A stretch of DNA of 64,000 nucleotides from Pseudomonadota bacterium (GTDB lineage: Archaea; Thermoplasmatota; SW-10-69-26; JACQPN01; JAJPHT01): positions 1 to 64,000 of the forward strand of contig JAJPHT010000045.1 in the NCBI GenBank assembly GCA_021325135.1. Direction: 5' to 3'. The notes under the pieces are model-generated. The model saw only the letters and a program-made list of their open reading frames with translations, had not been told where the DNA came from and did not search any database. The position numbers and the translations under genes were made by a program. Shown piece by piece: positions 5,794 to 26,312 of the stretch; position 1 is the first letter of the stretch; the number at the start of each line of letters is the position of its first letter.

Positions 5794-6957
5794 ATGTACC
5801 TGATCACCGAGTGGTTCGGCGCGTTCCTCGTGGGTGAGGACGGCTCCGTCGTCCAGGAGCGGCTCTTTCCCAAAGAGCCCGCCGCGCTGGCCCAGGTGCT
5901 CCAGCGCCTCCAGGACGGCATGGTCCTGGAGGAGGAGCGCGCGCTGGCCGCCCGCGCCGAGGGCGACGTCCTCGTGCGCGAAGAGCGCCAGGTGCGCCTC
6001 CCCGCCGCGAAGCTCGCGCCCAAGGCGCCCAGCCTCGCCGACCACGCCTCCGAGATGGGCTACCCCCGCGACCTCCTGCACAAGGCCACCATGGAGCTTG
6101 GCCGGATGGGCGTGCGCGCGAGCAGCAGCAAGCGCGACATGCACGTCGTCCAGGCGGTGGACGCCATCGACGAGCTCCACGAGCAGGCGAACATCGTGGT
6201 GGAGCGCCTCCGCGAGTGGTACGGCCTCCACTTCCCCGAGCTGGTCGACTCCCAGGCGCCCAACGAGGAGATCGCCGCGCTCATCAGCAGCCACGCCGAC
6301 CGCGACGCCATCATGGCCGCCGCGCCGCAGCACCGCGTGAAGGACTCCATGGGCGGACCGCTGCCCGCGCTGGAGGCCGCCGCCGTGCGGCAGCTTGCGC
6401 GCACCGCGTCCACCCTCTACAGCACGCGCGCGGAGCTGGAGAAGTACCTCGACCAGGCGATGCCCGAGGTGGCGCCCAACGTGTCGGTGCTCCTCCAGCC
6501 CGTCCTCGCGGCGCGCATGGTGAAGCAGGCCGGCGGCATCCGCCGCCTGGCGACCATGCCCGCGGGCACGATCCAGACACTTGGCGCCGAGAAGGCGCTC
6601 TTCCGCCACATCAAGGAGGGCAAGCGCCCGCCCAAGCACGGCTTCCTCATGCAGCACCCGCTCATACACCGGGCGCCCCGCCACCAGCGCGGCGCGCTCG
6701 CGCGCAGCCTCGCGGCGAAGGTCGCGCTGGCCGCGCGCGCCGACGTGTTCACCAAGAGCACCGAGGCGGGCGCGCGCCTCGCGGCCGAGTTCGCGACGCG
6801 CGCGGAGGCGCTGAAGTCCCAGCAGATGCGCCAGAAGCGCATGAAGGCCAAGAAGGGCGGCTTCACCGGCCGCCCCCCAGCGGGAGGCCCCGGCGGCGCT
6901 CCTGGAGGCCCCAAGAAGTTCGGGGGCAAGGCCAGGTTCCGCGGAGGTGACCGCTGA
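5794..6957 (+). CDS. nop5: C/D-box sRNP protein Nop5 (Nop56/58 homolog)
   Basis: MYLITEWFG; ERLREWYGLHFPEL; APN; MPAGTIQTLGAEKALFRH; PPKHG; ARAD. Confidence 0.95.
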   Translation: MYLITEWFGAFLVGEDGSVVQERLFPKEPAALAQVLQRLQDGMVLEEERALAARAEGDVLVREERQVRLPAAKLAPKAPSLADHASEMGYPRDLLHKATMELGRMGVRASSSKRDMHVVQAVDAIDELHEQANIVVERLREWYGLHFPELVDSQAPNEEIAALISSHADRDAIMAAAPQHRVKDSMGGPLPALEAAAVRQLARTASTLYSTRAELEKYLDQAMPEVAPNVSVLLQPVLAARMVKQAGGIRRLATMPAGTIQTLGAEKALFRHIKEGKRPPKHGFLMQHPLIHRAPRHQRGALARSLAAKVALAARADVFTKSTEAGARLAAEFATRAEALKSQQMRQKRMKAKKGGFTGRPPAGGPGGAPGGPKKFGGKARFRGGDR

Positions 6958-7883
6958 TGGCGCGCGAGATCCTTCCCAACGTCATCGCGTTCGACGACGG
7001 GCGCATCCTCTCCCGCAGCCTCGTCCCCGGCCAGCGCGTCTACGACGAGGAGCTCCACACCGTGGACGGGCAGGAGTTCCGCACGTGGAACCCCACCAAG
7101 AGCAAGCTGGGCGCCTACATCGTGAAGGGCGGCCGCGCGTTCAGCATCAAGCAGGACGCGACCGTCGTCTACCTGGGCGCCGCCAACGGCACGACGCCTT
7201 CGCACGTGAGCGACATGGTGCGCGAGGGCGTCATGGTCGCCGTGGAGTTCAGCCCGCGCAGCTTCCGCGACCTCCTGCGCATGAGCGAGCCGCGCGCGAA
7301 CATCGTCCCCGTCCTGGGCGACGCGTGGCGCCCGCAGCTCTACGAGCGCTACGTCGGGCACGTGGACTTCCTCTTCCAGGACATCGCGCAGCGCCAGCAG
7401 GCGGCCATCTTCGCCAAGAACCTCCTGGCGTTCAAGCCCGACCTGGCCATGATCGCCGTGAAGGCGCGCAGCGTGGACGTCGCCGCGCACCCGCGCGACG
7501 TGTACGAGAACGTCGCCCGCGAGGTGGAGGAGCGCAGCGGCTACGAGGTCGTCGACTCGCTGGACCTCGGGCCCTTCGAGAAGGACCACGCCGCGCTCGT
7601 GCTGCGCCCCGGCTCGGGGAAGAAGCGCGAGCCGCGCGCCGAGGCCCGCGAGGAGCGGCCCCAGCGCGAGGATCGCCCCCGCGGCTTCCAGCGCCGGGAC
7701 GACAAGCCCCGCGGCGAGAGGCCCCAGGGCGGCTTCCAGCGCCGCGAAGGCGGCTACGAGAAGCGCGGCCCGCCCCCGGGCAAGGGCAAGTTCCAGCCCC
7801 GCGACGACCGCGGCCCGCGCGGGCCCCCCCGCGACGACCGGCGCCCCGGCGGCGACTTCGGCAACCGGCGCGGCTGGCGCTGA
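6957..7883 (+). CDS. flpA: Fibrillarin rRNA 2'-O-methyltransferase with an R/G-rich C-terminal extension
   Basis: FRTWNPTKSKLGA, VYLGAANGTTPSHVSD, AVEFSPR, NIVPVLGDA, FQDIAQRQQA, KARSVD, PFEKDH; coupled to nop5 (TGATG). Confidence 0.96.
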   Translation: MAREILPNVIAFDDGRILSRSLVPGQRVYDEELHTVDGQEFRTWNPTKSKLGAYIVKGGRAFSIKQDATVVYLGAANGTTPSHVSDMVREGVMVAVEFSPRSFRDLLRMSEPRANIVPVLGDAWRPQLYERYVGHVDFLFQDIAQRQQAAIFAKNLLAFKPDLAMIAVKARSVDVAAHPRDVYENVAREVEERSGYEVVDSLDLGPFEKDHAALVLRPGSGKKREPRAEAREERPQREDRPRGFQRRDDKPRGERPQGGFQRREGGYEKRGPPPGKGKFQPRDDRGPRGPPRDDRRPGGDFGNRRGWR

Positions 7884-7892
7884 GGTGATCCC

Positions 7893-8855
7893 ATCGCGCG
7901 GCACGTCGTGACGGGAGGAGCCGGGTTCATCGGCTCGCACCTCGCGGACGCCCTCCTCGCGCGGGGCGACGAGGTCGTCGTCTACGACAACCTGAGCGCC
8001 GGCAAGGAGGCCTTCCTCGCCCGGCACAAGGGGGACCCCCGCTATCATTTCGTGCACGCGGACGTGCTGGACACCGCCGACCTCGCGCTGGCGATGAAGG
8101 GCGCGGACGTGGTGTGGCACGTCGCGGCCGACCCCGACGTGCGCACCAGCGGCCTGCGCGCCGAGGTGCACGTCAACCAGAACGTCATCGCGACGCTGCG
8201 CGTGCTGGAGGCCATGCGCGTCGCGGGCGTGCGCAGGATCGCGTTCACCTCCACGAGCACCGTCTACGGCGAGGCGAAGACCATCCCCACGCCCGAGGAC
8301 TACGCGCCCATGGAGCCCATCAGCCTCTACGGCGCGTCGAAGCTGGGCAGCGAGGCGCTCATCAGCGCGTACTGCCACACGTTCGACATGCAGGGGCTCG
8401 CGTTCCGCTTCGCGAACATCGTGGGCCCGCGCAGCACGCACGGCGTGACCTACGACTTCTACCACAAGCTCAAGGCGAGCCCCAAGCGCCTGGAGATCCT
8501 GGGCGACGGGCGGCAATTGAAGAGCTACTGCCACGTGGACGACTGCGTCTCGGCGATGCTCTTCGTGGAGTCGCGCCCCTGGCCGCGCTTCGACGTCTAC
8601 AACATCGGCAGCGACGACGCCATCGACGTGTTCGACCTGGCGCGCGTGGCCGCCGAGGTGTGGGGCCTGAAGGGCGTGGAGATGGTCGCCACGGGAGCGA
8701 AGGGCTCGGGCGGCTGGAAGGGCGACGTGCGCCGCATGGGCCTCGCCAACGAGAAGATCAAGAAGCTGGGCTGGGCGCCGCGCTACACCAGCGCGTCCGC
8801 CATCCGCGCGACGGCCGAGGCGCTGGCGCGCGAGATGGGCAACATCTCCCGTTGA
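7893..8855 (+). CDS. NAD-dependent epimerase/dehydratase (UDP-glucose 4-epimerase-like); probable ATC start
   Basis: VVTGGAGFIGSH, STSTVYG, YGASK, RFANIVGP; SD GAGGTGA at 7882-7888 precedes an in-frame ATC at 7893 (first GTG is 7908). Confidence 0.9.
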   Translation: MARHVVTGGAGFIGSHLADALLARGDEVVVYDNLSAGKEAFLARHKGDPRYHFVHADVLDTADLALAMKGADVVWHVAADPDVRTSGLRAEVHVNQNVIATLRVLEAMRVAGVRRIAFTSTSTVYGEAKTIPTPEDYAPMEPISLYGASKLGSEALISAYCHTFDMQGLAFRFANIVGPRSTHGVTYDFYHKLKASPKRLEILGDGRQLKSYCHVDDCVSAMLFVESRPWPRFDVYNIGSDDAIDVFDLARVAAEVWGLKGVEMVATGAKGSGGWKGDVRRMGLANEKIKKLGWAPRYTSASAIRATAEALAREMGNISR

Positions 8856-17826: not shown

Positions 17827-17899
17827 GCCCCGGTAGTGTAGCGGCCTATCATAGAGCCCTGTCGAGGCTCTGACGCGGGTTCGAATCCCGCCCGGGGCG
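17827..17899 (+). tRNA. tRNA-Asp(GTC)
   Basis: GCCCCGG..GAGCC-CT-GTC-GA-GGCTC..GCGGG-TTCGAAT-CCCGC-CCGGGGC-G cloverleaf. Confidence 0.97.
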
Positions 17900-18018
17900 C
17901 TTTTTTCGCCGCAGCCGCGGCTGCGGCGAAAAAAGCGCCCCGGGCTTGCCTCACCGACCTTGCGACTCCGTGCCTGCGGGCACTCCGTCGCAAGGTCGGC
18001 TCGGCCCGCCCGGGGCGC
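17887..18018. repeat. tRNA-3'-end duplication with nested inverted repeats
   Basis: Perfect 56-bp palindrome 17890-17945; second hairpin 17954-17999; 14-bp direct repeat CCCGCCCGGGGCGC at 17887-17900 and 18005-18018. Confidence 0.85.
17901..17906 (+). terminator. Oligo-T terminator-like run after tRNA-Asp
   Basis: TTTTTT one base after the discriminator; mirrored by A6 at 17929-17934. Confidence 0.5.
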
Positions 18019-18038: not shown

Positions 18039-18320
18039 TCAAGGAAGGACGGGCGTGCAGGAGAACTCGAAGTTGCGCCAGAGGTTGTCGCCTCCGGCGC
18101 CGCCGAAGTAGCCCTCGAAAGCGCAGGTCCAGACCTGGGGCTGGCAGCCGTCGATGGGGGCGTCCGCGCGGACGAAGCCGCCGTTCACCGTGCAGCCGTA
18201 GACGAGGCCCAGGTCGGCGAGGCAGTCGCCCGTGCTTCCGCAGACGCTCGGAGGGGCGGCGTTGGCCAGGGGGAGGGCGGCGAGGGGGACGAGGGCCAGG
18301 AGGATCGCAAGCAGCTTCAT
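18039..18320 (-). CDS. Small secreted 6-Cys protein (93 aa)
   Basis: MKLLAILLALVPLAALPLANA signal; six Cys in the mature part; ends PVLP. Confidence 0.75.
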   Translation of the reverse strand: MKLLAILLALVPLAALPLANAAPPSVCGSTGDCLADLGLVYGCTVNGGFVRADAPIDGCQPQVWTCAFEGYFGGAGGDNLWRNFEFSCTPVLP

Positions 18321-18428: not shown

Positions 18429-18698
18429 ATGCCGGAAGGCGCTCGAGCCCCCCGCCTGCCCGTGCCGCCTCCCCTGGACGACGAGGAGGCCGGCTACGAG
18501 GCCGACATCCGTCGAAGGGGGGACCTCGACGAGCCCCTGACGGCGAAGGAGCGGGCGTTCCTCGCGCGCCTGCCCGCGCACACGGGCATCCCGGCCGAGG
18601 TCGTGCGCGAGGCGGCGAAGCGCGCGGGCGGCGTCGAGCCGCGGCCTGCCGCGCTGCATCCGGAGGACGCGGCATCCGGAGATTCCGAAGTCACCTGA
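18429..18698 (+). CDS. Hypothetical protein (89 aa)
   Basis: SD GAGGAGG before ATG 18429; MPEGARAP...; no recognisable motif. Confidence 0.5.
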   Translation: MPEGARAPRLPVPPPLDDEEAGYEADIRRRGDLDEPLTAKERAFLARLPAHTGIPAEVVREAAKRAGGVEPRPAALHPEDAASGDSEVT

Positions 18699-18759
18699 TC
18701 CTTTCCGGTGGAAAAAGCCAGAATGTTCTTGTAGTCGCCCAGCCCCGATGGAAGACTGA

Positions 18760-19236
18760 ATGCACGCCTTCGATGGCGTCGGCAGCACGAAGAAGGCCCT
18801 CGCCCGCGAGCTCGTCCTCGCGTTCGGCATCCTGCGCTGCCCGGTGTGCGGCGACGAGAAGGCCGTCGAGTCCTTGACCAAGCACCACATCCACCCGCGC
18901 AGCCTGGGCGGCCCCACGGACCTGCGCAACCTGGTGCTCATCTGCCGCGCGTGCCACGACGACGTGCACCACTTCCCCAGCTCGTTCTGGGCCCGCGCCG
19001 CGCTGGAGGCGTTCCTCAACTGCCGCAACGTGACGTATCCGTTCCCGCCTCCCCCGGAGCCCGAGAACGCGGAGGACACGCTGCGCATCTTCTTCGTCCG
19101 CGCCAGCGCGCGCGTCGAGCGCGACCGCAAGGTGGCGGAGCGCCTGCGCAACCCGCCCTTCAACCCCCAGTGGCCCGTCGCGCGCCACTTCGGGCCGCTC
19201 CCCGAGCGGACGCTGCACCTCCCCGCCGAGGCGTGA
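18760..19236 (+). CDS. HNH endonuclease (Zn-finger HNH)
   Basis: CPVCG...LTKHHIHPRSLGGPTDLRNLVLICRACHDDVH. Confidence 0.88.
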   Translation: MHAFDGVGSTKKALARELVLAFGILRCPVCGDEKAVESLTKHHIHPRSLGGPTDLRNLVLICRACHDDVHHFPSSFWARAALEAFLNCRNVTYPFPPPPEPENAEDTLRIFFVRASARVERDRKVAERLRNPPFNPQWPVARHFGPLPERTLHLPAEA

Positions 19237-19241
19237 GCGCC

Positions 19242-19595
19242 TCAGGGCAGGCCGACGACCTGCGAGGCGTCGTTGCTGAGGACGCAGCCCCACTTCTTGA
19301 AGATGGGCTGGTCCGGCCAGTTCTGGAACCAGACCGTGGCGCCCACGCAGTCGGGGATCCACAGCGTGCACACGGAGTCGACGCACAGCGTGGTCTTGCC
19401 GATCTCCGAGAAGTCAAAGCCGATGCAGGCCGACGTGGACGTGCACGAGGGGCCGAACCCGACCTGGCAGAACGCATCGAGGACGATGGGCGAGAGCGCG
19501 CATCCCAGCAAGTCGGTGGGCTCGGCCTGGGCGGCGGGCGTTGCGAGAGGCGCGAGGCAGAGGAGGGCGACGAGAAGGAGGGGTCGTGAGATCAT
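19242..19595 (-). CDS. Secreted 8-Cys mini-protein, paralog 1 (type A)
   Basis: Signal ending AAQA; core GFGPSCTSTSAC; TVWFQ; DQP.FK.WGC. Confidence 0.85.
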   Translation of the reverse strand: MISRPLLLVALLCLAPLATPAAQAEPTDLLGCALSPIVLDAFCQVGFGPSCTSTSACIGFDFSEIGKTTLCVDSVCTLWIPDCVGATVWFQNWPDQPIFKKWGCVLSNDASQVVGLP

Positions 19596-19628
19596 GGGAT
19601 CGCGTCCCGCTCCATGGGCGGGAGCGCC

Positions 19629-19652
19629 TTCAATCCTCTCTGCCAACCTTGC
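19629..19652 (-). promoter_or_regulatory. Conserved upstream motif, copy 1 (GCAAGGTTGG-N9-TTGAA)
   Basis: Plus-strand TTCAA at 19629 and CCAACCTTGC at 19643-19652; same spacing in all four copies. Confidence 0.7.
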
Positions 19653-19664
19653 CACGTCCGCGCC

Positions 19665-20018
19665 TCAGGGCAGGCCGAAGATCGCGCCGACGTTCTGCCG
19701 ACAGTATTCGTTGTCGATGCTGGGGTTCTCCGGCCAGTCCTGGAACCAGACGGTGACCCGCACGCAGAGGGGCAGGTAGGGCGTGCACACGGAGGCCGTC
19801 ACGCACTCGTACCTCTTGCCCGACTCCAGGACGTCGGCGCCCAGGCAGGCCGAAGTGGAGGTGCACGAAGGGCCGAAGCCCACCTCGCAGAACGACCAGG
19901 GGTCGATGGGAGAGAACACGCACCCCAGGATATCGATGGACGTCTTGGCCTGGGCGGCGGGCGTTGCGAGAGGCGCGAGGCAGAGGAGGGCGATGAGAAG
20001 GAAGACTCGTGTCGTCAT
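19665..20018 (-). CDS. Secreted 8-Cys mini-protein, paralog 2 (type B)
   Basis: Same signal type, GFGPSCTSTSAC core and TVWFQ; C-terminal PE.P..D.E.C. Confidence 0.85.
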   Translation of the reverse strand: MTTRVFLLIALLCLAPLATPAAQAKTSIDILGCVFSPIDPWSFCEVGFGPSCTSTSACLGADVLESGKRYECVTASVCTPYLPLCVRVTVWFQDWPENPSIDNEYCRQNVGAIFGLP

Positions 20019-20051
20019 GGGAATCCCTCTTCACCCACGGGCGGGGGCTCC

Positions 20052-20075
20052 TTCAACTCTCCCTGCCAACCTTGC
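20052..20075 (-). promoter_or_regulatory. Conserved upstream motif, copy 2
   Basis: TTCAA at 20052, CCAACCTTGC at 20066-20075. Confidence 0.7.
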
Positions 20076-20097
20076 TGCGCCGCCGGAGCGCGACGCG

Positions 20098-20162
20098 CCC
20101 CCCGTGAGCCTGACGCCACCGAGGACACGCTCCGCAACCGCCAAGGGCCCGCCGAGGCGTGA
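20098..20162 (+). pseudogene. Internally deleted remnant of the 3' end of the HNH gene
   Basis: Reads PREPDATEDTLRN...PAEA* versus HNH PPEPENAEDTLR...RLRN...PAEA*; CCCGCCGAGGCGTGA is identical at 19222-19236 and 20148-20162. Confidence 0.75.
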
Positions 20163-20168
20163 AGGCGC

Positions 20169-20519
20169 TCAGGACGGGCCGAGGACCTGCACGATCTCGC
20201 CGATGAGGCAGCCCCAGTGCTTGAACGTCGGCTGATCCGGCCAGTCCTGGAACCAGACCGTGACGCCCACGCAGTTGGGGAGCCACGGGGTGCATCCGGC
20301 GATGGTGCACTGCTTGTACTTGCCGATCTCCGAGACGTCCACGCCGATGCAGGCGGAGGTGGACGTGCACGAGGGGCCGAACCCGACCTCGCAGAACGCC
20401 GAGACGTCGATGGGAGAGAACACGCACCCCAGGAGGTCGGTGGACGCGGCTTGGGCCACGGGCGCCGCGAGGGGGGCAAGGCAGAGGAGGCCAAGGAGAA
20501 GGAAGGGCCGCAGGGTCAT
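20169..20519 (-). CDS. Secreted 8-Cys mini-protein, paralog 3 (type A)
   Basis: Same core; DQPTFKHWGC, closest to paralog 1. Confidence 0.85.
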   Translation of the reverse strand: MTLRPFLLLGLLCLAPLAAPVAQAASTDLLGCVFSPIDVSAFCEVGFGPSCTSTSACIGVDVSEIGKYKQCTIAGCTPWLPNCVGVTVWFQDWPDQPTFKHWGCLIGEIVQVLGPS

Positions 20520-20553
20520 GGGATCGCTCGTCTCGCCCATGGGCGGGAGCGGC

Positions 20554-20577
20554 TTCAATCCTGCCTGCCAACCTTGC
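20554..20577 (-). promoter_or_regulatory. Conserved upstream motif, copy 3
   Basis: TTCAA at 20554, CCAACCTTGC at 20568-20577. Confidence 0.7.
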
Positions 20578-20610
20578 CGCGCCCACGAGGGCGCTTCAGC
20601 CAGGACGCCC

Positions 20611-20973
20611 TCAGGGCAGGACGCCCGCGGGCCGGACGTCCACCACGGGGGAGCAGATCTCCTGGTCCACGCGGGGGCTCTCCGGCCGGTCCTGGAACCA
20701 GACGGTGACGGTCACGCACGAGGGGAGCCACGGCGAGCAGGTGGCGTTCACGCATTCCAGGTCCTTCCACGTCTCCGCGACGTTGGCGCCCAGGCACGCC
20801 GAGGTGGAGGTGCACGAGGGGCCGAAGCCCGCGCTGCAGTAGGCGAACGGGTCGGTGAAGGACGCGACGCACGCCTTCAGGTCGATGGAGCGCGCCATGC
20901 CAGCGGCCTGGGCCGGCGCGGCCACGAGCAGGAGGGAGAGCGCAGCCAGGACGAGGAGGGACCGCTGGACCAT
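20611..20973 (-). CDS. Secreted 8-Cys mini-protein, paralog 4 (type B)
   Basis: Same core; PESPRVDQEIC resembles paralog 2. Confidence 0.85.
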   Translation of the reverse strand: MVQRSLLVLAALSLLLVAAPAQAAGMARSIDLKACVASFTDPFAYCSAGFGPSCTSTSACLGANVAETWKDLECVNATCSPWLPSCVTVTVWFQDRPESPRVDQEICSPVVDVRPAGVLP

Positions 20974-21010
20974 GGGAATCGTCTCCTGGCCCGCACCCGC
21001 GGGAGACGCG

Positions 21011-21034
21011 TTCAGTCTTCTCTACCAACCTTGC
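21011..21034 (-). promoter_or_regulatory. Conserved upstream motif, copy 4 (overlaps the last codons of the hydrolase gene)
   Basis: TTCAG at 21011, CCAACCTTGC at 21025-21034; encodes part of RQGW* of the upstream CDS. Confidence 0.65.
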
Positions 21035-21984
21035 CGCGTCTCCGTGGCCACGCCGTCGCGCACCAGGAACGTCTCCAGCCCCCGGTCCTCCGCGGGGACC
21101 CACCACGGCTCGTGCAACGACTCGTAGCGCTGCGCGGCGTCGGTGAACGAGACGATCCATCCGCCCCCGGGCGCGGGCTCCGCGTCGAGGGCCATGGGCC
21201 CGTAGCTCCCCAGGAGGAAGCCGCGGTACGCGTTGGTGGACTCCGCGGCGTTGATGGCGGGCGCGGCCTCGGGCGGGATCGACTCGGGGAACCATGTGGG
21301 GTCGACGCGCGCGCCGTCCCGGTCCACCTCCGCGACGAGGGTGCCGTTGGCGGCCCGGTCGACGACGATCCACTCGCGGAAGAGGCCGTGAGGGTACGCG
21401 TGCGCCGCGTCGGCGGGCCGCTCCGCCAGGAGGCCCGCGCCGAGCGCGAGGAGGAGGATCGCCACGAGCGCGCCCGCCTGCGCGACGCGCCGCGGCGGCA
21501 GGCGCCCCAGCGCGTGCAGCAGGAGGATCGCCGCGGGGATCGGGAAGAGGAGGTCCACCTGCCAGGGGAAGACCTCGAAGCCGAAGCGCCGCGACGAGAA
21601 GGGGAAGAGGAGCGGCACGCCCGAGAGCGTCACGCCGTCGAGGACGAGGTGCGTCCACGAGCCCAGCACGAGCAGCGGGACGAACGCGGGCTGCCACGCG
21701 AAGAGGCCCAGCCTGCGGGGCCACGCGCGCGCCGCCAGCGCGAGGGCGCCCACCAGCGCGAAGGCGAAGAGGGGCGCGCCGAAGAGGCTGTGGGAGAGCC
21801 CGCGGTGCTGCAGGAACCAGAGGGCGTCGACGCGCCGCGCGAGCCCGCCCAGGAGGCCGTCGAGGTCGGGCGCCGCCGCGGCGACGCCGAAGACGGCGGC
21901 CCACGCCCAGCGGGCGTCGCCCTTGCGCCTGAGCGCGACGAGCGCCGCCGCGTAGGGGATCAGCGCGTGCGTGGCGACGTCCAC
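21022..21984 (-). CDS. Membrane-bound metal-dependent hydrolase (YdjM-like)
   Basis: MDVATHA, APDLD, HRGLSHSL, THLVLD, GVPLLFPF; GTG start at 21984. Confidence 0.88.
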   Translation of the reverse strand: MDVATHALIPYAAALVALRRKGDARWAWAAVFGVAAAAPDLDGLLGGLARRVDALWFLQHRGLSHSLFGAPLFAFALVGALALAARAWPRRLGLFAWQPAFVPLLVLGSWTHLVLDGVTLSGVPLLFPFSSRRFGFEVFPWQVDLLFPIPAAILLLHALGRLPPRRVAQAGALVAILLLALGAGLLAERPADAAHAYPHGLFREWIVVDRAANGTLVAEVDRDGARVDPTWFPESIPPEAAPAINAAESTNAYRGFLLGSYGPMALDAEPAPGGGWIVSFTDAAQRYESLHEPWWVPAEDRGLETFLVRDGVATETRQGW

Positions 21985-22016
21985 GGCGGGGGAGCGGCCG
22001 GAGGGTGGATCAGGCT

Positions 22017-23290: not shown

Positions 23291-24127
23291 TCAGCGCCTT
23301 CGGAGGGTCCACCCTGCGATCGCGACGGCGACCACGCCCAGCCCAAGCTCGGGGCCCGGGAGGAGGTGCTTCCCTCCGGCGTCGGCGGGCGGGGGGTCGG
23401 TCGCATAGAGATGAAGGATGGGCACATCGTCGTAATTGAACCCTCCGGAGCGGCTGGCGAACCGGAGATGGTACATGGACGCCTTGGGGAAATTGTAATC
23501 ATACGTCCAGAGGCCCTTGGACTGGTGCTTCAGGGTGACCTGCTGCTGGTCGAAGAGCTGGGAGTGGTCGTTGCTCCAGCGCTCGACGTTCATCTGGAGG
23601 TCGTTGAGCTTGTCGACCCTCTGGCCCGTGATGGGGTCCACCGTCTCGATGGCCAGCACGGTGCGGGAGCCCGTGGTGACGTCCTGCTGGAGGTCCGCAG
23701 ACTGGATGCGCACCGGCAGGTCCGGGTACGCGGTGAAGGTGGTGCTCTGCGAGTAGTCCGTGCCGTTGGGCGCGTGCAGGATGAACGTCGCGGAGTAGTT
23801 GCCCCGCGCGGGCAGGATGAACGACCCGACGAGGTAGCCCGTGGGGTCGTGCGCCATGTCGAGGCTCTTGGACCAGTTGTCGGGCCCGCGCATGACCATG
23901 GTCGCGCCCAGGGTCGTGACGTAGTTCCCCGTCGCGTTGTCCGAGACCAAGGCCGAGAAGGAGATGCTGTTGTTGGCGTAGACGTTGGTGGGCTGCGGGT
24001 CGACGTAGGCCGCGTAGGGCCCCAGGAGGAGGCTGCGGGCCTGGCTGAACCCCTCGATGTGGGCGTTCGCGGAGGGGGCGGCAGCGAGGGCCGCGAGGAG
24101 GGTGAGGAGGAGGGCGAGTCGGCGCAA
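23291..24127 (-). CDS. Secreted Ig-like protein with His1 and a PG-TM-RRR anchor (copper cluster)
   Basis: SD GGTGAT + TTG; signal ANA|HIEG; C-terminal LLPGPELGLGVVAVAIAGWTLRRR. Confidence 0.75.
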   Translation of the reverse strand: MRRLALLLTLLAALAAAPSANAHIEGFSQARSLLLGPYAAYVDPQPTNVYANNSISFSALVSDNATGNYVTTLGATMVMRGPDNWSKSLDMAHDPTGYLVGSFILPARGNYSATFILHAPNGTDYSQSTTFTAYPDLPVRIQSADLQQDVTTGSRTVLAIETVDPITGQRVDKLNDLQMNVERWSNDHSQLFDQQQVTLKHQSKGLWTYDYNFPKASMYHLRFASRSGGFNYDDVPILHLYATDPPPADAGGKHLLPGPELGLGVVAVAIAGWTLRRR

Positions 24128-24133
24128 GGGGGA

Positions 24134-24652
24134 TCACCGGCGGCGGACGAGGAACGCGACGCCCGCCAGCGCGACGATGGCGCCCAGCGCGGCCTCGCCT
24201 CCGGACTTGTTGGTGGCGCCCCCCGTGACCTTCAGCTCGCCCACCATGCCGCCCTGGGCATGGCCGGGGATGGCGCAGTAGTAGTAGAACGTGCCCGCCT
24301 TCTTCAGCGTGAACGGGGGCAGGTCGATGGACTCGTTGTTGCCGAGGTTCTTCGTGGGGCCGGCCCACTTGTCGTTGCACGTCGTCCCGGGCGAGACGCC
24401 GTCGCCGCACACGAGGAGGTTGTGCGGGCTGGGGCCGAGGTTGATGACGTGGATCCTCACCGTGTCGCCCACGACGCCGTCGATGCGCTCGGGCGCGATG
24501 TGGAAGCCCGCGCTGAACTCGTGGAGCTCCACCTCGCACGAGATGACGGTGCCGGACTTGGTGCAGGCGGGGACGTCGGGGGTCTGGGCGTGGGCGGGCG
24601 CCGCGGCGAGGAGGACGAGCGCGGCGACGAGGGTTCCGAGGGCGAGGCGCAT
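24134..24652 (-). CDS. Cupredoxin (type-1 blue copper protein) with C-terminal anchor
   Basis: GDTVRI..N....HNL and YYCAIPGHAQGGM supply the H/C/H/M ligands. Confidence 0.9.
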   Translation of the reverse strand: MRLALGTLVAALVLLAAAPAHAQTPDVPACTKSGTVISCEVELHEFSAGFHIAPERIDGVVGDTVRIHVINLGPSPHNLLVCGDGVSPGTTCNDKWAGPTKNLGNNESIDLPPFTLKKAGTFYYYCAIPGHAQGGMVGELKVTGGATNKSGGEAALGAIVALAGVAFLVRRR

Positions 24653-24656
24653 GATA

Positions 24657-26312
24657 TCAACTCGTGGCGGGCGCGGCGCCGGGCGCCGCGACGGGGACGT
24701 CGAAGGTGAGCTTGGCGAACTCGTCGGGGCGCTGCAGGAGGACCCACACGCGCCAGGTGCCGACGGAGGTGAAGTAGCCGTCCTCCCCGCTGAAGGTGTC
24801 GGCGTTGATCTTGTCCAGGGGGATGATGGCGTCGGGCTCCTTCTCCCCGGCGCGGGCGACCTTGATGGAGACCTCGGTCGCGTTGGGGATGCCCTCGGCC
24901 GAGAGCGGGTGGAGGAGGACGGCGATCTTCTGGACGCCCACCTGGGGCGGGTTGGGGCTGACCTGGAGGACGACGTGCGTCGTCTTCGTGAAGTTGGTGA
25001 GCTCGAAGTACGCGGGAGGGCCCAGGGAGGCCTGCTCCGTCCCGACCTCGGGGGGCGCGGTGGACGCGAGGACGCCCGCGGCGGCGAGGACGCAGACCAT
25101 GGTGAAGGCCTCCACCTGGACCACGCGGCGGAAGAAGCGCGGGCTCGCGCTGCCGCGGGCGAGGCGCGGCCCCATGATCTCCTTGTTGTACGCGCCGATG
25201 AGGACGAGGACGCCCAGGAGCGCGACCTTGAGGAGCACGAGGCGCCCGTAGGGCTGGAGCCACAGGTCGGAGAGCGTGGGGACGTGGCGGAAGCTCGCCC
25301 ACGTGCCCGTGGCCAGGAGGACGCCCACGCTGGCGAGGGCCCACGGCGTGAAGCGCAGCACGACGCGGCTGGCCTCCTGCGCAGTGCGGCCCCAGAGGGT
25401 GTGCAGGAAGCCGACGACGCCGCCCACCCAGACGGCGCCCATGGCGAGGTGCAGCACGTCGGCCGCCAGCGAGAGCGCGCGCTCCCCGCGGTCCGCCGAG
25501 GCGTGGCTCCCCAGGGAGGTCGCGACCAGCGAGCCCAGGGCGAGGAGGACGCCCGCGCCCGCGAGGGGGCGGCGCGCGCCGGGGAGCCCCACCGCGGCCA
25601 AGGCGCACAGCACGCTGGCGGCGAGGAGGCCGCCGCGCCACGCGAACGAGAGCCCCGCCTCGGTGGAGATCGCCGAGCCGAAGCCCAGCCCCGTGCGCTG
25701 CGCGAGGAGGAGGACGTTGAGGAGCGCGGCCGCGGCGCCCAGGATGCCGAAGAGGGCGGCGGTCGCGAACGCGCTGCGCGGCATGCCCGCGTCGCGGTCG
25801 ATGACGAGGAGGAAGAAGGGGAGGCCCAGGGCGAGGAAGAGGCCCGCGTAGAAGACCGCCCGCGCGAAGCCGTCCTTCACCACGTCGCCGCTGGGGTGGT
25901 TGTGCACCTCGTTGGGGTCCAGGGGGACCTTGATGGTGGAGTTGCCCACGGAGAAGATGAACGTGCCCTGGAGGCTGTGCGAGTCGACGCTCAGCGTCTG
26001 CCAGTTCACGGTGTAGATGCCGTCCGCCAGGGGCTTCACCGGGAGGCGGATCTGGTTGTGGTGCTCCGCGTCGAACTCGATGGGGCCCGCCTTCACGCTG
26101 TTGCCCTGGAGGTCCAGCGCGTCGGCGTCGGTGTACTGGTGCTCCACGTCCTCGGTGAAGTTCATCACGACGACGGAGAGCCCGTACTCGGCGTGGCCGT
26201 TGGGGGGCGGATCGCTGGATTGGAGGCTCGCGTGCGCGGCGGCCAAGGGCGCGCTGAGCACGGCGGCCAGCGCGGCGAGGAGGACGATCCTTCGCAAGGC
26301 AGGAGCGCGCAC
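24657..26312 (-). CDS. CopC-CopD fusion copper transport protein
   Basis: AAA|HASLQSSDP, YTVNWQTLSVDSH...G.F.F.VG (CopC); SHAS, HLAMGAVWVGG, YG..VLLKVAL (CopD); C-terminal soluble domain. Confidence 0.9.
   Translation of the reverse strand: MRAPALRRIVLLAALAAVLSAPLAAAHASLQSSDPPPNGHAEYGLSVVVMNFTEDVEHQYTDADALDLQGNSVKAGPIEFDAEHHNQIRLPVKPLADGIYTVNWQTLSVDSHSLQGTFIFSVGNSTIKVPLDPNEVHNHPSGDVVKDGFARAVFYAGLFLALGLPFFLLVIDRDAGMPRSAFATAALFGILGAAAALLNVLLLAQRTGLGFGSAISTEAGLSFAWRGGLLAASVLCALAAVGLPGARRPLAGAGVLLALGSLVATSLGSHASADRGERALSLAADVLHLAMGAVWVGGVVGFLHTLWGRTAQEASRVVLRFTPWALASVGVLLATGTWASFRHVPTLSDLWLQPYGRLVLLKVALLGVLVLIGAYNKEIMGPRLARGSASPRFFRRVVQVEAFTMVCVLAAAGVLASTAPPEVGTEQASLGPPAYFELTNFTKTTHVVLQVSPNPPQVGVQKIAVLLHPLSAEGIPNATEVSIKVARAGEKEPDAIIPLDKINADTFSGEDGYFTSVGTWRVWVLLQRPDEFAKLTFDVPVAAPGAAPATS

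Follow-up and report, generated by a model that had tools for sequence, protein, structure and literature searches.

Small secreted cysteine-rich proteins have been described in several settings that resemble, in part, the locus reported here. Archaeocins such as halocin C8 are small, Cys-rich, secreted archaeal proteins with a patchy distribution; halocin C8 is released from a larger precursor, which confers immunity as well. Fungal hydrophobins (PF01185, PF06766) are fairly hydrophobic secreted proteins of about 100 amino acids (aa), encoded by multi-gene families and holding eight Cys in four disulfides. The small secreted cysteine-rich protein (SSCP) effectors of fungi and oomycetes, and the defensin-like arrays of plants and animals, combine tandem, lineage-specific expansion with a signal peptide, a Cys scaffold bearing fast-changing loops and no enzymatic motif. 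Finally, precursors of lanthipeptides (ribosomally synthesized and post-translationally modified peptides, RiPPs, of classes I-IV) contain a short Ser/Thr/Cys-rich stretch. Features of all four recur in a tandem array of four genes, c1 to c4, found in a stretch of 64,000 nucleotides (the window; positions 1 to 64,000 of contig JAJPHT010000045.1, assembly GCA_021325135.1; G+C content 68-80%) of a Thermoplasmatota genome (G000; 3.77 Mb, 51 contigs, 94% complete). We think that c1-c4 are probably functional paralogues, all four belonging to a rare family of small secreted proteins that has not been described before. The genes are:

19242-19595, minus strand: c1, 117 aa, A-type (C-terminal FKxWGC); G+C content at third codon positions (GC3) 0.88; family profile match at E = 3.7e-61.
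19665-20018, minus strand: c2, 117 aa, B-type (C-terminal ExPxxDxExC).
20169-20519, minus strand: c3, 116 aa from the conserved ATG, A-type, 66% identical to c1; an alternative, longer open reading frame (ORF) from a TTG start extends to 20558.
20611-20973, minus strand: c4, 120 aa, B-type, the most divergent copy and the one closest to the metagenome homologue P0005.

The four genes are co-oriented, and their products align over the full length with pairwise identities of 43-66% and 40 invariant columns out of 121. The invariant columns include eight Cys of the mature domain, the GFGPSCTSTSAC block (12 residues) and a TVWFQ block. The mature Cys are spaced C-x10-C-x7-C-x5-C-x13-C-x4/5-C-x6-C-x20-C, with no two adjacent. 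Two C-terminal sequence types are present, A-like in c1 and c3 and B-like in c2 and c4. Every copy begins with a predicted signal peptide: position 4 is basic (R), the h-region is rich in Leu and Ala and 12-14 residues long, and AQA follows. These peptides and their predicted cleavage site were read by eye; each shows the basic n-region, hydrophobic h-region and AxA expected for Sec export and signal peptidase I. The predicted mature proteins are 92-96 aa long and acidic (isoelectric point, pI, 4.0-4.4), with a grand average of hydropathy (GRAVY) of +0.18 to +0.46, 8-11 aromatic residues and no anchor. A sequence-only reading of the window had described four co-oriented genes of 116-120 aa with AQA signal peptides, eight aligned Cys and invariant GFGPSCTSTSAC and TVWFQ blocks, all of which the ORFs and the alignment confirm. 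Its picture of a conserved Cys scaffold and invariant blocks separated by variable segments is likewise supported by the alignments of the copies and of the wider family.

The family is defined by a signal peptide, C1-x10-C2, a central loop of either CTSTSxC or DLDGR[DE], the motif C5-x4-C6-[TS]-P-[WMY]-[LIV]-P-x-C7, and C8 about 20 residues further on; all four copies carry the complete arrangement. The family profile finds c1-c4 and no other member in G000. A profile made only from distant homologues in other genomes, members of the other subfamily, recovered c1-c4 at E values between 1e-15 and 5e-11, and these were its only matches in the 3.77-Mb genome; the homology of c1-c4 to that subfamily is therefore solid. 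Among 5.8 billion protein clusters we found a single close homologue, P0005, a JGI hypothetical protein on a 1.6-kb contig, which is 55% identical to c4 over 87 aa and also of the B-type. A full HMMER pass over 1.84 billion representatives added seven distant members, all of them nameless singleton clusters. Two other matches were rejected as spurious: P0008 is a repeat protein, and P0014 an acetyl-CoA synthetase that clusters with a fragment.

No family member was found in 40 relatives, four of them from the same genus. In a sample of 400 genomes from the phylum, matches outside G000 came from just two genomes, both of family f30: G312 carries three copies, and the one match in G142 was weak (E = 2.7e-4) and is not counted as a secure member. 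When all 32 genomes of f30 were searched, secure members were present in all three genomes of one genus, at 2-4 copies each and including a tandem pair. Among genome contigs, the pattern of the 6-Cys subfamily (described below) matched three loci in two 'Mix_sand' Thermoplasmatota metagenome-assembled genomes (MAGs) of this genus, and it had no match in metagenome or viral contigs; the pattern of the close family matched no JGI metagenome contig, GTDB genome contig or viral contig. To date, family members are known only from MAGs of Thermoplasmatota and from a few metagenome contigs. In G246 (L044, contig C46) a protein of about 210 aa has a divergent 6-Cys domain at its C-terminus, following a Cys-rich N-terminal part (E = 8.7e-7), and may be a two-domain form of the family.

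The sequence-only reading had recognized no family and had suggested a profile search for relatives. That search, as described above, yielded a few singleton clusters and one other Thermoplasmatota genus with 2-4 copies per genome, and the absence of a recognizable family was borne out. Scans of c1-c4 and 14 family members against Pfam, NCBIfam, PADLOC and PHROGs assigned no family (in Pfam, none at E<=0.1 for any of c1-c4), a profile search of PDB sequences gave no match at E<=10, the ESM Atlas gave no usable match, and a literature search on such proteins returned nothing relevant.

All four reading frames are intact, with GC3 of 0.88-0.97 compared to 0.94-0.99 for neighbouring host genes. 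At 17 of the 38 invariant residues that have degenerate codons, two or three different codons are used across c1-c4; in the GFGPSCTSTSAC block six codons vary synonymously, without a single replacement. Substitution counting by the Nei-Gojobori method (NG86) gave dN/dS of 0.59-1.14 among the copies (dS 0.28-0.61). Values near 1 were rejected as a signal of positive selection, since controls on conserved flanking genes, compared with sister species, gave 0.26-0.41 by the same method: the ratio is inflated because GC3 of about 0.95 compresses the apparent synonymous change. In place of counting we adopted the pairwise maximum-likelihood (ML) codon model of Goldman and Yang (GY94) with F3x4 frequencies. 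ML ω among the copies was 0.13-0.35 where synonymous change was unsaturated, and ω = 1 was rejected for every pair (2ΔlnL 10.8-45). For the flanking genes, compared between G000 and G002, ML ω was 0.042 (HNH endonuclease) and 0.047 (a 377-aa gene). The four genes are under purifying selection, and their proteins change 3-8 times faster than those of their neighbours. Neutral decay of the copies, which the sequence-only reading had named as evidence that would speak against it, is rejected by ω significantly below 1 in every pair and by the synonymous-only variation at invariant residues.

We then considered the Cys in an alignment of 19 family members. All 19 keep C5-C8 and the motif C-x4-C-[TS]-P-[WMY]-[LIV]-P-x-C without change. 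One sequence has lost both C1 and C2, and ten have lost both C3 and C4. In the 6-Cys subfamily a conserved D-L-D-G-R-[DE] turn stands in place of the C3-C4 loop, and the members in genus g140 have no loop Cys pair. The joint loss of each pair leads us to predict disulfides C1-C2 and C3-C4. The simplest reading of this pattern would be three modules: a C1-C2 bond, a C3-C4 bond closing the five-residue loop TSTSA, and two bonds among C5-C8. The site of the central loop thus appears to be conserved within each subfamily and solved in two ways, by a Cys-stapled loop or by a DLDGR[DE] turn. AlphaFold2 models made with a 14-sequence alignment were β-rich and of low confidence, with a predicted local distance difference test (pLDDT) score of 58 for the full length and 53 for the mature domain; both place the central loop between two strands. 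With this weak model, Foldseek found nothing in the PDB at E<=0.001, and the best Z in a wide VIA-align search was 3.7, which is noise level.

We propose, with moderate confidence, that the proteins are exported, four-disulfide, β-rich scaffolds in which the conserved central loop is the functional site and the flanks diversify. The pre-protein would leave the cell by the Sec pathway and be cut after the AQA motif, releasing an acidic, aromatic-rich and probably β-rich mature domain of about 93 aa. Four disulfides would lock this domain: C3-C4 would staple the invariant CTSTSAC loop, which probably sits at a β-hairpin tip, and the other two bonds would lie within the invariant four-Cys core around CTPW[LI]PxC. 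Selection would hold the scaffold and the central loop fixed and let the surrounding segments change 3-8 times faster than neighbouring genes, so that the loop may serve as a common functional site and the variable flanks may tune specificity. They would most likely serve, as a diversified set, in extracellular binding or at the cell surface. The genes and the selection on them, the scarcity of the family, its Cys modules, the lineage-specific location and the duplication scars are observed; export, disulfide formation, the β fold and the binding role are features that we infer.

The genes and motifs around the array bear on how it arose:

18760-19236, plus strand: HNH endonuclease gene, convergent with the array (Pfam PF01844, HNH, E = 4.5e-14).
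19629-19651, minus strand: upstream motif of c1, CAAGGTTGGCAG-N7-TGAA, starting 56 nt before the ATG.
20019-20168: long c3-c2 spacer with two collinear remnants of the 3' end of the HNH gene (15/15 and 15/16 nt).
20052-20074, minus strand: upstream motif of c2 (pattern search and alignment).
20554-20576, minus strand: upstream motif of c3 (pattern search and alignment).
21011-21033, minus strand: upstream motif of c4, which is the last codons and stop (Q-G-W-TAG) of the hydrolase gene.
21022-21990, minus strand: gene for a YdjM-family membrane hydrolase, directly upstream of c4 and co-oriented with it (Pfam PF04307, E = 2.9e-25).

The array is missing from four other genomes of the genus. In G002, the closest species (flanking genes 87-89% identical to G000 at the protein level), the HNH and YdjM hydrolase genes are convergent with adjacent stop codons, leaving no room for an array, and in G000 the array sits exactly at this junction. 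In G001 the tRNA-Asp, HNH and 377-aa genes are present, and the hydrolase and the array are both absent. A motif, CAAGGTTGG[C/T]AG-N7-TGAA, precedes every copy about 56 nt before the ATG; the pattern has exactly four matches in the 3.77-Mb genome, all at the array, and no control matches. The motif before c4 is the 3' end of the hydrolase gene (the hydrolase terminus of G002, R-G-W-TGA, is homologous to the Q-G-W-TAG of G000), which indicates that the duplicated unit carried this 3' end along; the c4 motif is thus the source of the copies before c1-c3. In c1-c3 the motif is non-coding and yet perfectly kept, while synonymous sites differ by 0.3-0.6, arguing for a present function; it may now act as a promoter or operator.

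The HNH remnants in the c3-c2 spacer were found by blastn-short (E = 7e-5 and 0.004), and the spacer thus holds an internally deleted second copy of the HNH gene. Together, the hydrolase codons before each copy, the HNH remnant and the position at the junction point to tandem duplication in place. A single gene downstream of the YdjM hydrolase gene would have duplicated first; a [B, A, HNH] unit would have duplicated next, and most of the second HNH copy would then have been deleted. The doubling of [B, A, HNH] is supported by the HNH remnants in the spacer and by the alternation of A-type c1 and c3 with B-type c2 and c4. In addition, the signal-peptide DNA of c1 and c2 is 93% identical, which suggests local gene conversion.

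Other elements were seen in the same upstream regions. GAT(T)CCC is conserved directly before each ATG (19596-19628, 20019-20051, 20520-20553 and 20974-21010); its GATCC is complementary to GGAUC of the 16S rRNA 3' end and may be a Shine-Dalgarno-type site. Before c1 and c2, a tiny upstream ORF ends in an ATGA that contains the start codon. We make no claim for a hairpin or palindrome, CGCCCATGGGCG, between the upstream motif and the ATG, which is not consistently kept across the four copies. An Rfam scan of the intergenic spacers gave nothing.

Beyond the HNH gene lie the following features:

17827-17900, plus strand: tRNA-Asp(GTC), bordering the variable region (ARAGORN, Rfam).
18039-18320, minus strand: gene for a 93-aa secreted protein with six mature Cys, unrelated to the array family, in the genome-specific segment 17905-18710.
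18431-18700, plus strand: 89-aa ORF of high GC3, in the same segment.

The tRNA-Asp, the HNH nuclease and a 6-Cys secreted protein had all been claimed for this neighbourhood and are there. The same reading called the region an accessory block, which holds for the array and the 6-Cys gene, both specific to G000, and fails for the HNH gene between them, conserved at the same locus in two genomes of the genus (nucleotide identity 85% in G002 and 77% in G001). The 93-aa protein was examined as a possible family member and rejected, as hhalign aligns the signal peptide only (probability 7%). Segment 17905-18710, between tRNA-Asp and HNH, has no counterpart in G001 or G002; the interval is only about 150 bp in G002 and about 640 bp in G001, where it holds a pilin-like 4-Cys ORF instead (L035, 1878-2225).

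On the other side, beyond the YdjM gene, are genes for a 377-aa protein of no assigned function, a 278-aa secreted protein, a cupredoxin and CopCD. The last three form a copper-handling set on the same strand (23291-26312): the 278-aa protein (23291-24127) has a C-terminal hydrophobic tail and is followed by the cupredoxin (24134-24652) and a CopC-CopD fusion (24657-26312). G002 has the same copper-handling neighbours without the array, so no link is indicated. Pfam scans covering all GC3-supported genes between about 9.2 and 31.3 kb identified ABC transporters, an S8 protease, a helix-turn-helix protein, HNH, YdjM, cupredoxin, CopCD and GatE, and no RiPP-modifying enzyme (LanB/C, LanM, LanKC/L, radical SAM or YcaO), which agrees, within about 10 kb, with the earlier claim that none is adjacent. 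No export or immunity gene accompanies the array within about 10 kb, and no extra ORF lies inside it. Past the window, the same contig holds a possible lanthipeptide cluster (G000:C42:65385-68920, L063), made up of a 64-aa ORF rich in Cys, Ser and Thr (65385-65579), a gene for a kinase-like protein (65746-66858) and, within an 832-aa open frame, a LanC-like domain (67853-68920).

The neighbours differ at family loci of other genomes, where they are pentapeptide-repeat proteins, a PIN/RHH pair, lipobox proteins and an ABC-F ATPase. In G312 (L017, contig C160, 6083-8846) two paralogous lipobox proteins (136 and 139 aa; 6913-7323 and 7842-8261, both on the minus strand) lie between two family members; they have no Pfam match and could be partners or immunity proteins. 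We discarded them as immunity candidates relevant to the array, given that no homologue is encoded in G000.

Several observations weigh against our interpretation of c1-c4 as a diversified set of secreted binding or surface proteins. An ω above 1 was not demonstrated, and the faster change may reflect relaxed constraint and not diversifying selection. No gene neighbourhood is conserved across the family loci that would indicate a partner or target. Secretion and disulfide formation are deduced from sequence, and the low pLDDT (58 and 53) makes the AlphaFold2 models unreliable and the placement of the loop in a β-hairpin tentative. The timing of the duplications is also in conflict: NG86 dS among the copies (0.28-0.61) equals or exceeds that of genes compared between G000 and G002 (0.29-0.37), so that simple duplication after the species split does not fit. 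The YdjM hydrolase is only 53% identical in aa sequence to its syntenic G002 counterpart, as against 87-89% for the genes on either side, and the G002 protein is no closer to it than the hydrolases of other genera are. The hydrolase and the array are thus probably an old, divergent segment, which may either have been retained here and lost elsewhere or have been recombined in between the conserved HNH and 377-aa genes.

Four other explanations have to be set against this interpretation, and we rank them, in falling order of probability, as toxins, coat proteins, modification substrates and decaying duplicates. Secreted antagonistic proteins, archaeocin- or bacteriocin-like toxins whose paralogues diversify in an arms race with competitors, would account for small, predicted secreted and predicted disulfide-rich proteins that are multi-copy, expanded in a lineage-specific manner in two separate genera, patchily distributed, placed in a variable region next to a tRNA gene and replaced 3-8 times faster than neighbours; the G312 pair, beside its two paralogous lipobox proteins as possible immunity candidates, fits as well. 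However, genes for immunity, export or processing are absent from the array and its immediate surroundings, the G312 lipoproteins are not found in G000, the mature proteins are acidic and not cationic, whole-gene ω is below 1, and no named toxin family in Pfam, NCBIfam or PADLOC shows similarity. We consider this explanation unlikely. The archaeocin-like and defensin-like suggestions of the sequence-only reading suffer accordingly: the former finds neither an accompanying immunity or export gene nor any profile match other than nameless hypothetical proteins, and the latter is at odds with the pI, with the length of 92-96 aa and with the failure of any defensin model to match. Surface-active or self-assembling coat proteins, comparable to fungal hydrophobins or bacterial chaplins and deployed in dry sand or soil, would agree with products of about 10 kDa that have eight Cys, predicted secretion, no anchor, positive GRAVY and many aromatic residues, with a multi-gene family in which little beyond the Cys scaffold is conserved, and with the origin of related MAGs from 'sand' samples. 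Yet the hydrophobin pattern C-CC-C-C-CC-C, with its two adjacent CC pairs, is absent from c1-c4, which tells against the earlier hydrophobin-like suggestion; Pfam hydrophobin models match none of 14 members even at E<=10, an invariant polar Ser/Thr loop is not a hydrophobin feature, and assembly or amyloid-type repeats are lacking. A coat function is, we think, improbable.

It is more doubtful still that the proteins are modification substrates, with the SCTSTSAC loop dehydrated and cyclised in a lanthionine-like manner or O-glycosylated, and with the modified protein or a released peptide as the active entity. The loop does resemble lanthipeptide cores in composition, and G000 encodes four LanC-like proteins, one of them about 47 kb away on the same contig, more than G002 (two) or G001, G003 and G004 (none found); G312 encodes one. 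These LanC-like genes weakly keep the scenario alive. Against it, no modifying enzyme is found within about 10 kb; the nearest LanC-like gene comes with a kinase-like neighbour and a candidate precursor of its own (64 aa, Cys/Ser/Thr-rich); a Sec signal peptide before a 93-aa Cys-rich domain is not a leader-core layout; members in genus g140 have DLDGR[DE] in place of the loop Cys pair; and the joint loss of C3 and C4 fits a plain disulfide. The remaining explanation, that the copies are recent duplicates, decaying or unexpressed, whose conservation merely reflects young age, could draw on the Nei-Gojobori ratios of 0.59-1.14 and on the lack of the array in the sister species. The ratios, however, are inflated by extreme GC3, as the flanking genes show, and decay is contradicted by four intact frames with host-like GC3, by ML ω significantly below 1, by invariant residues that vary synonymously only, by the preservation of the same Cys and motifs in homologues from other genera, and by perfect retention of the non-coding upstream motif in three copies despite dS of 0.3-0.6. 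We regard decay as largely refuted and give it a very small probability.

The locus defines a new small protein family, with about 20 sequences among some 15 billion and no relative in Pfam or PDB. Its hosts are uncultured soil and sand Thermoplasmatota with large genomes, whose biology is almost unknown and about whose secreted products very little is known. The locus bears clear marks of function, and its past is unusually easy to read: the duplication scars show a path from a single inserted gene to a four-gene repertoire between two abutting genes. If the proteins are antimicrobial or surface-active, they would represent a new class of archaeal effectors and a compact disulfide scaffold that might find use in biotechnology; if they are routine structural proteins, the value is limited to the annotation of a dark-matter family and its disulfide map. 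At its most ambitious, the proposal would be a new disulfide-stapled fold and the first secreted effector family of Thermoplasmatota, either a protein antibiotic against soil competitors or an archaeal analogue of hydrophobins, with the CTSTSAC hairpin tip as warhead or assembly site and duplication supplying a repertoire of specificities; we hold this version to be rather unlikely.

Compared with the described systems, the array matches none in full. From halocin C8 and other archaeocins, which were compared by description only, it differs by the absence of homology in the searches of 5.8 billion and 1.84 billion proteins and by its host, a Thermoplasmatota archaeon as opposed to a haloarchaeon; its genes stand alone, each encoding about 117 aa headed by a Sec signal peptide, and there is neither a larger precursor nor an immunity candidate. 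Unlike lanthipeptide precursors, for which LanC-like enzymes elsewhere in G000 offer a parallel, the array proteins have a Sec signal peptide and not a leader, a large predicted folded domain, no adjacent synthetase and a loop that is dispensable in the 6-Cys subfamily. In contrast to hydrophobins, they are archaeal, have no adjacent Cys, and carry invariant blocks, one polar (GPSCTSTSAC) and two aromatic (TVWFQ and CTPWLP). The SSCP effectors and defensin-like arrays are eukaryotic, and defensins are cationic and shorter than 60 aa, whereas the array proteins are acidic, 93 aa long and without a demonstrated ω above 1; with these arrays c1-c4 share tandem, lineage-specific expansion and a Cys scaffold with fast-changing loops behind a signal peptide.

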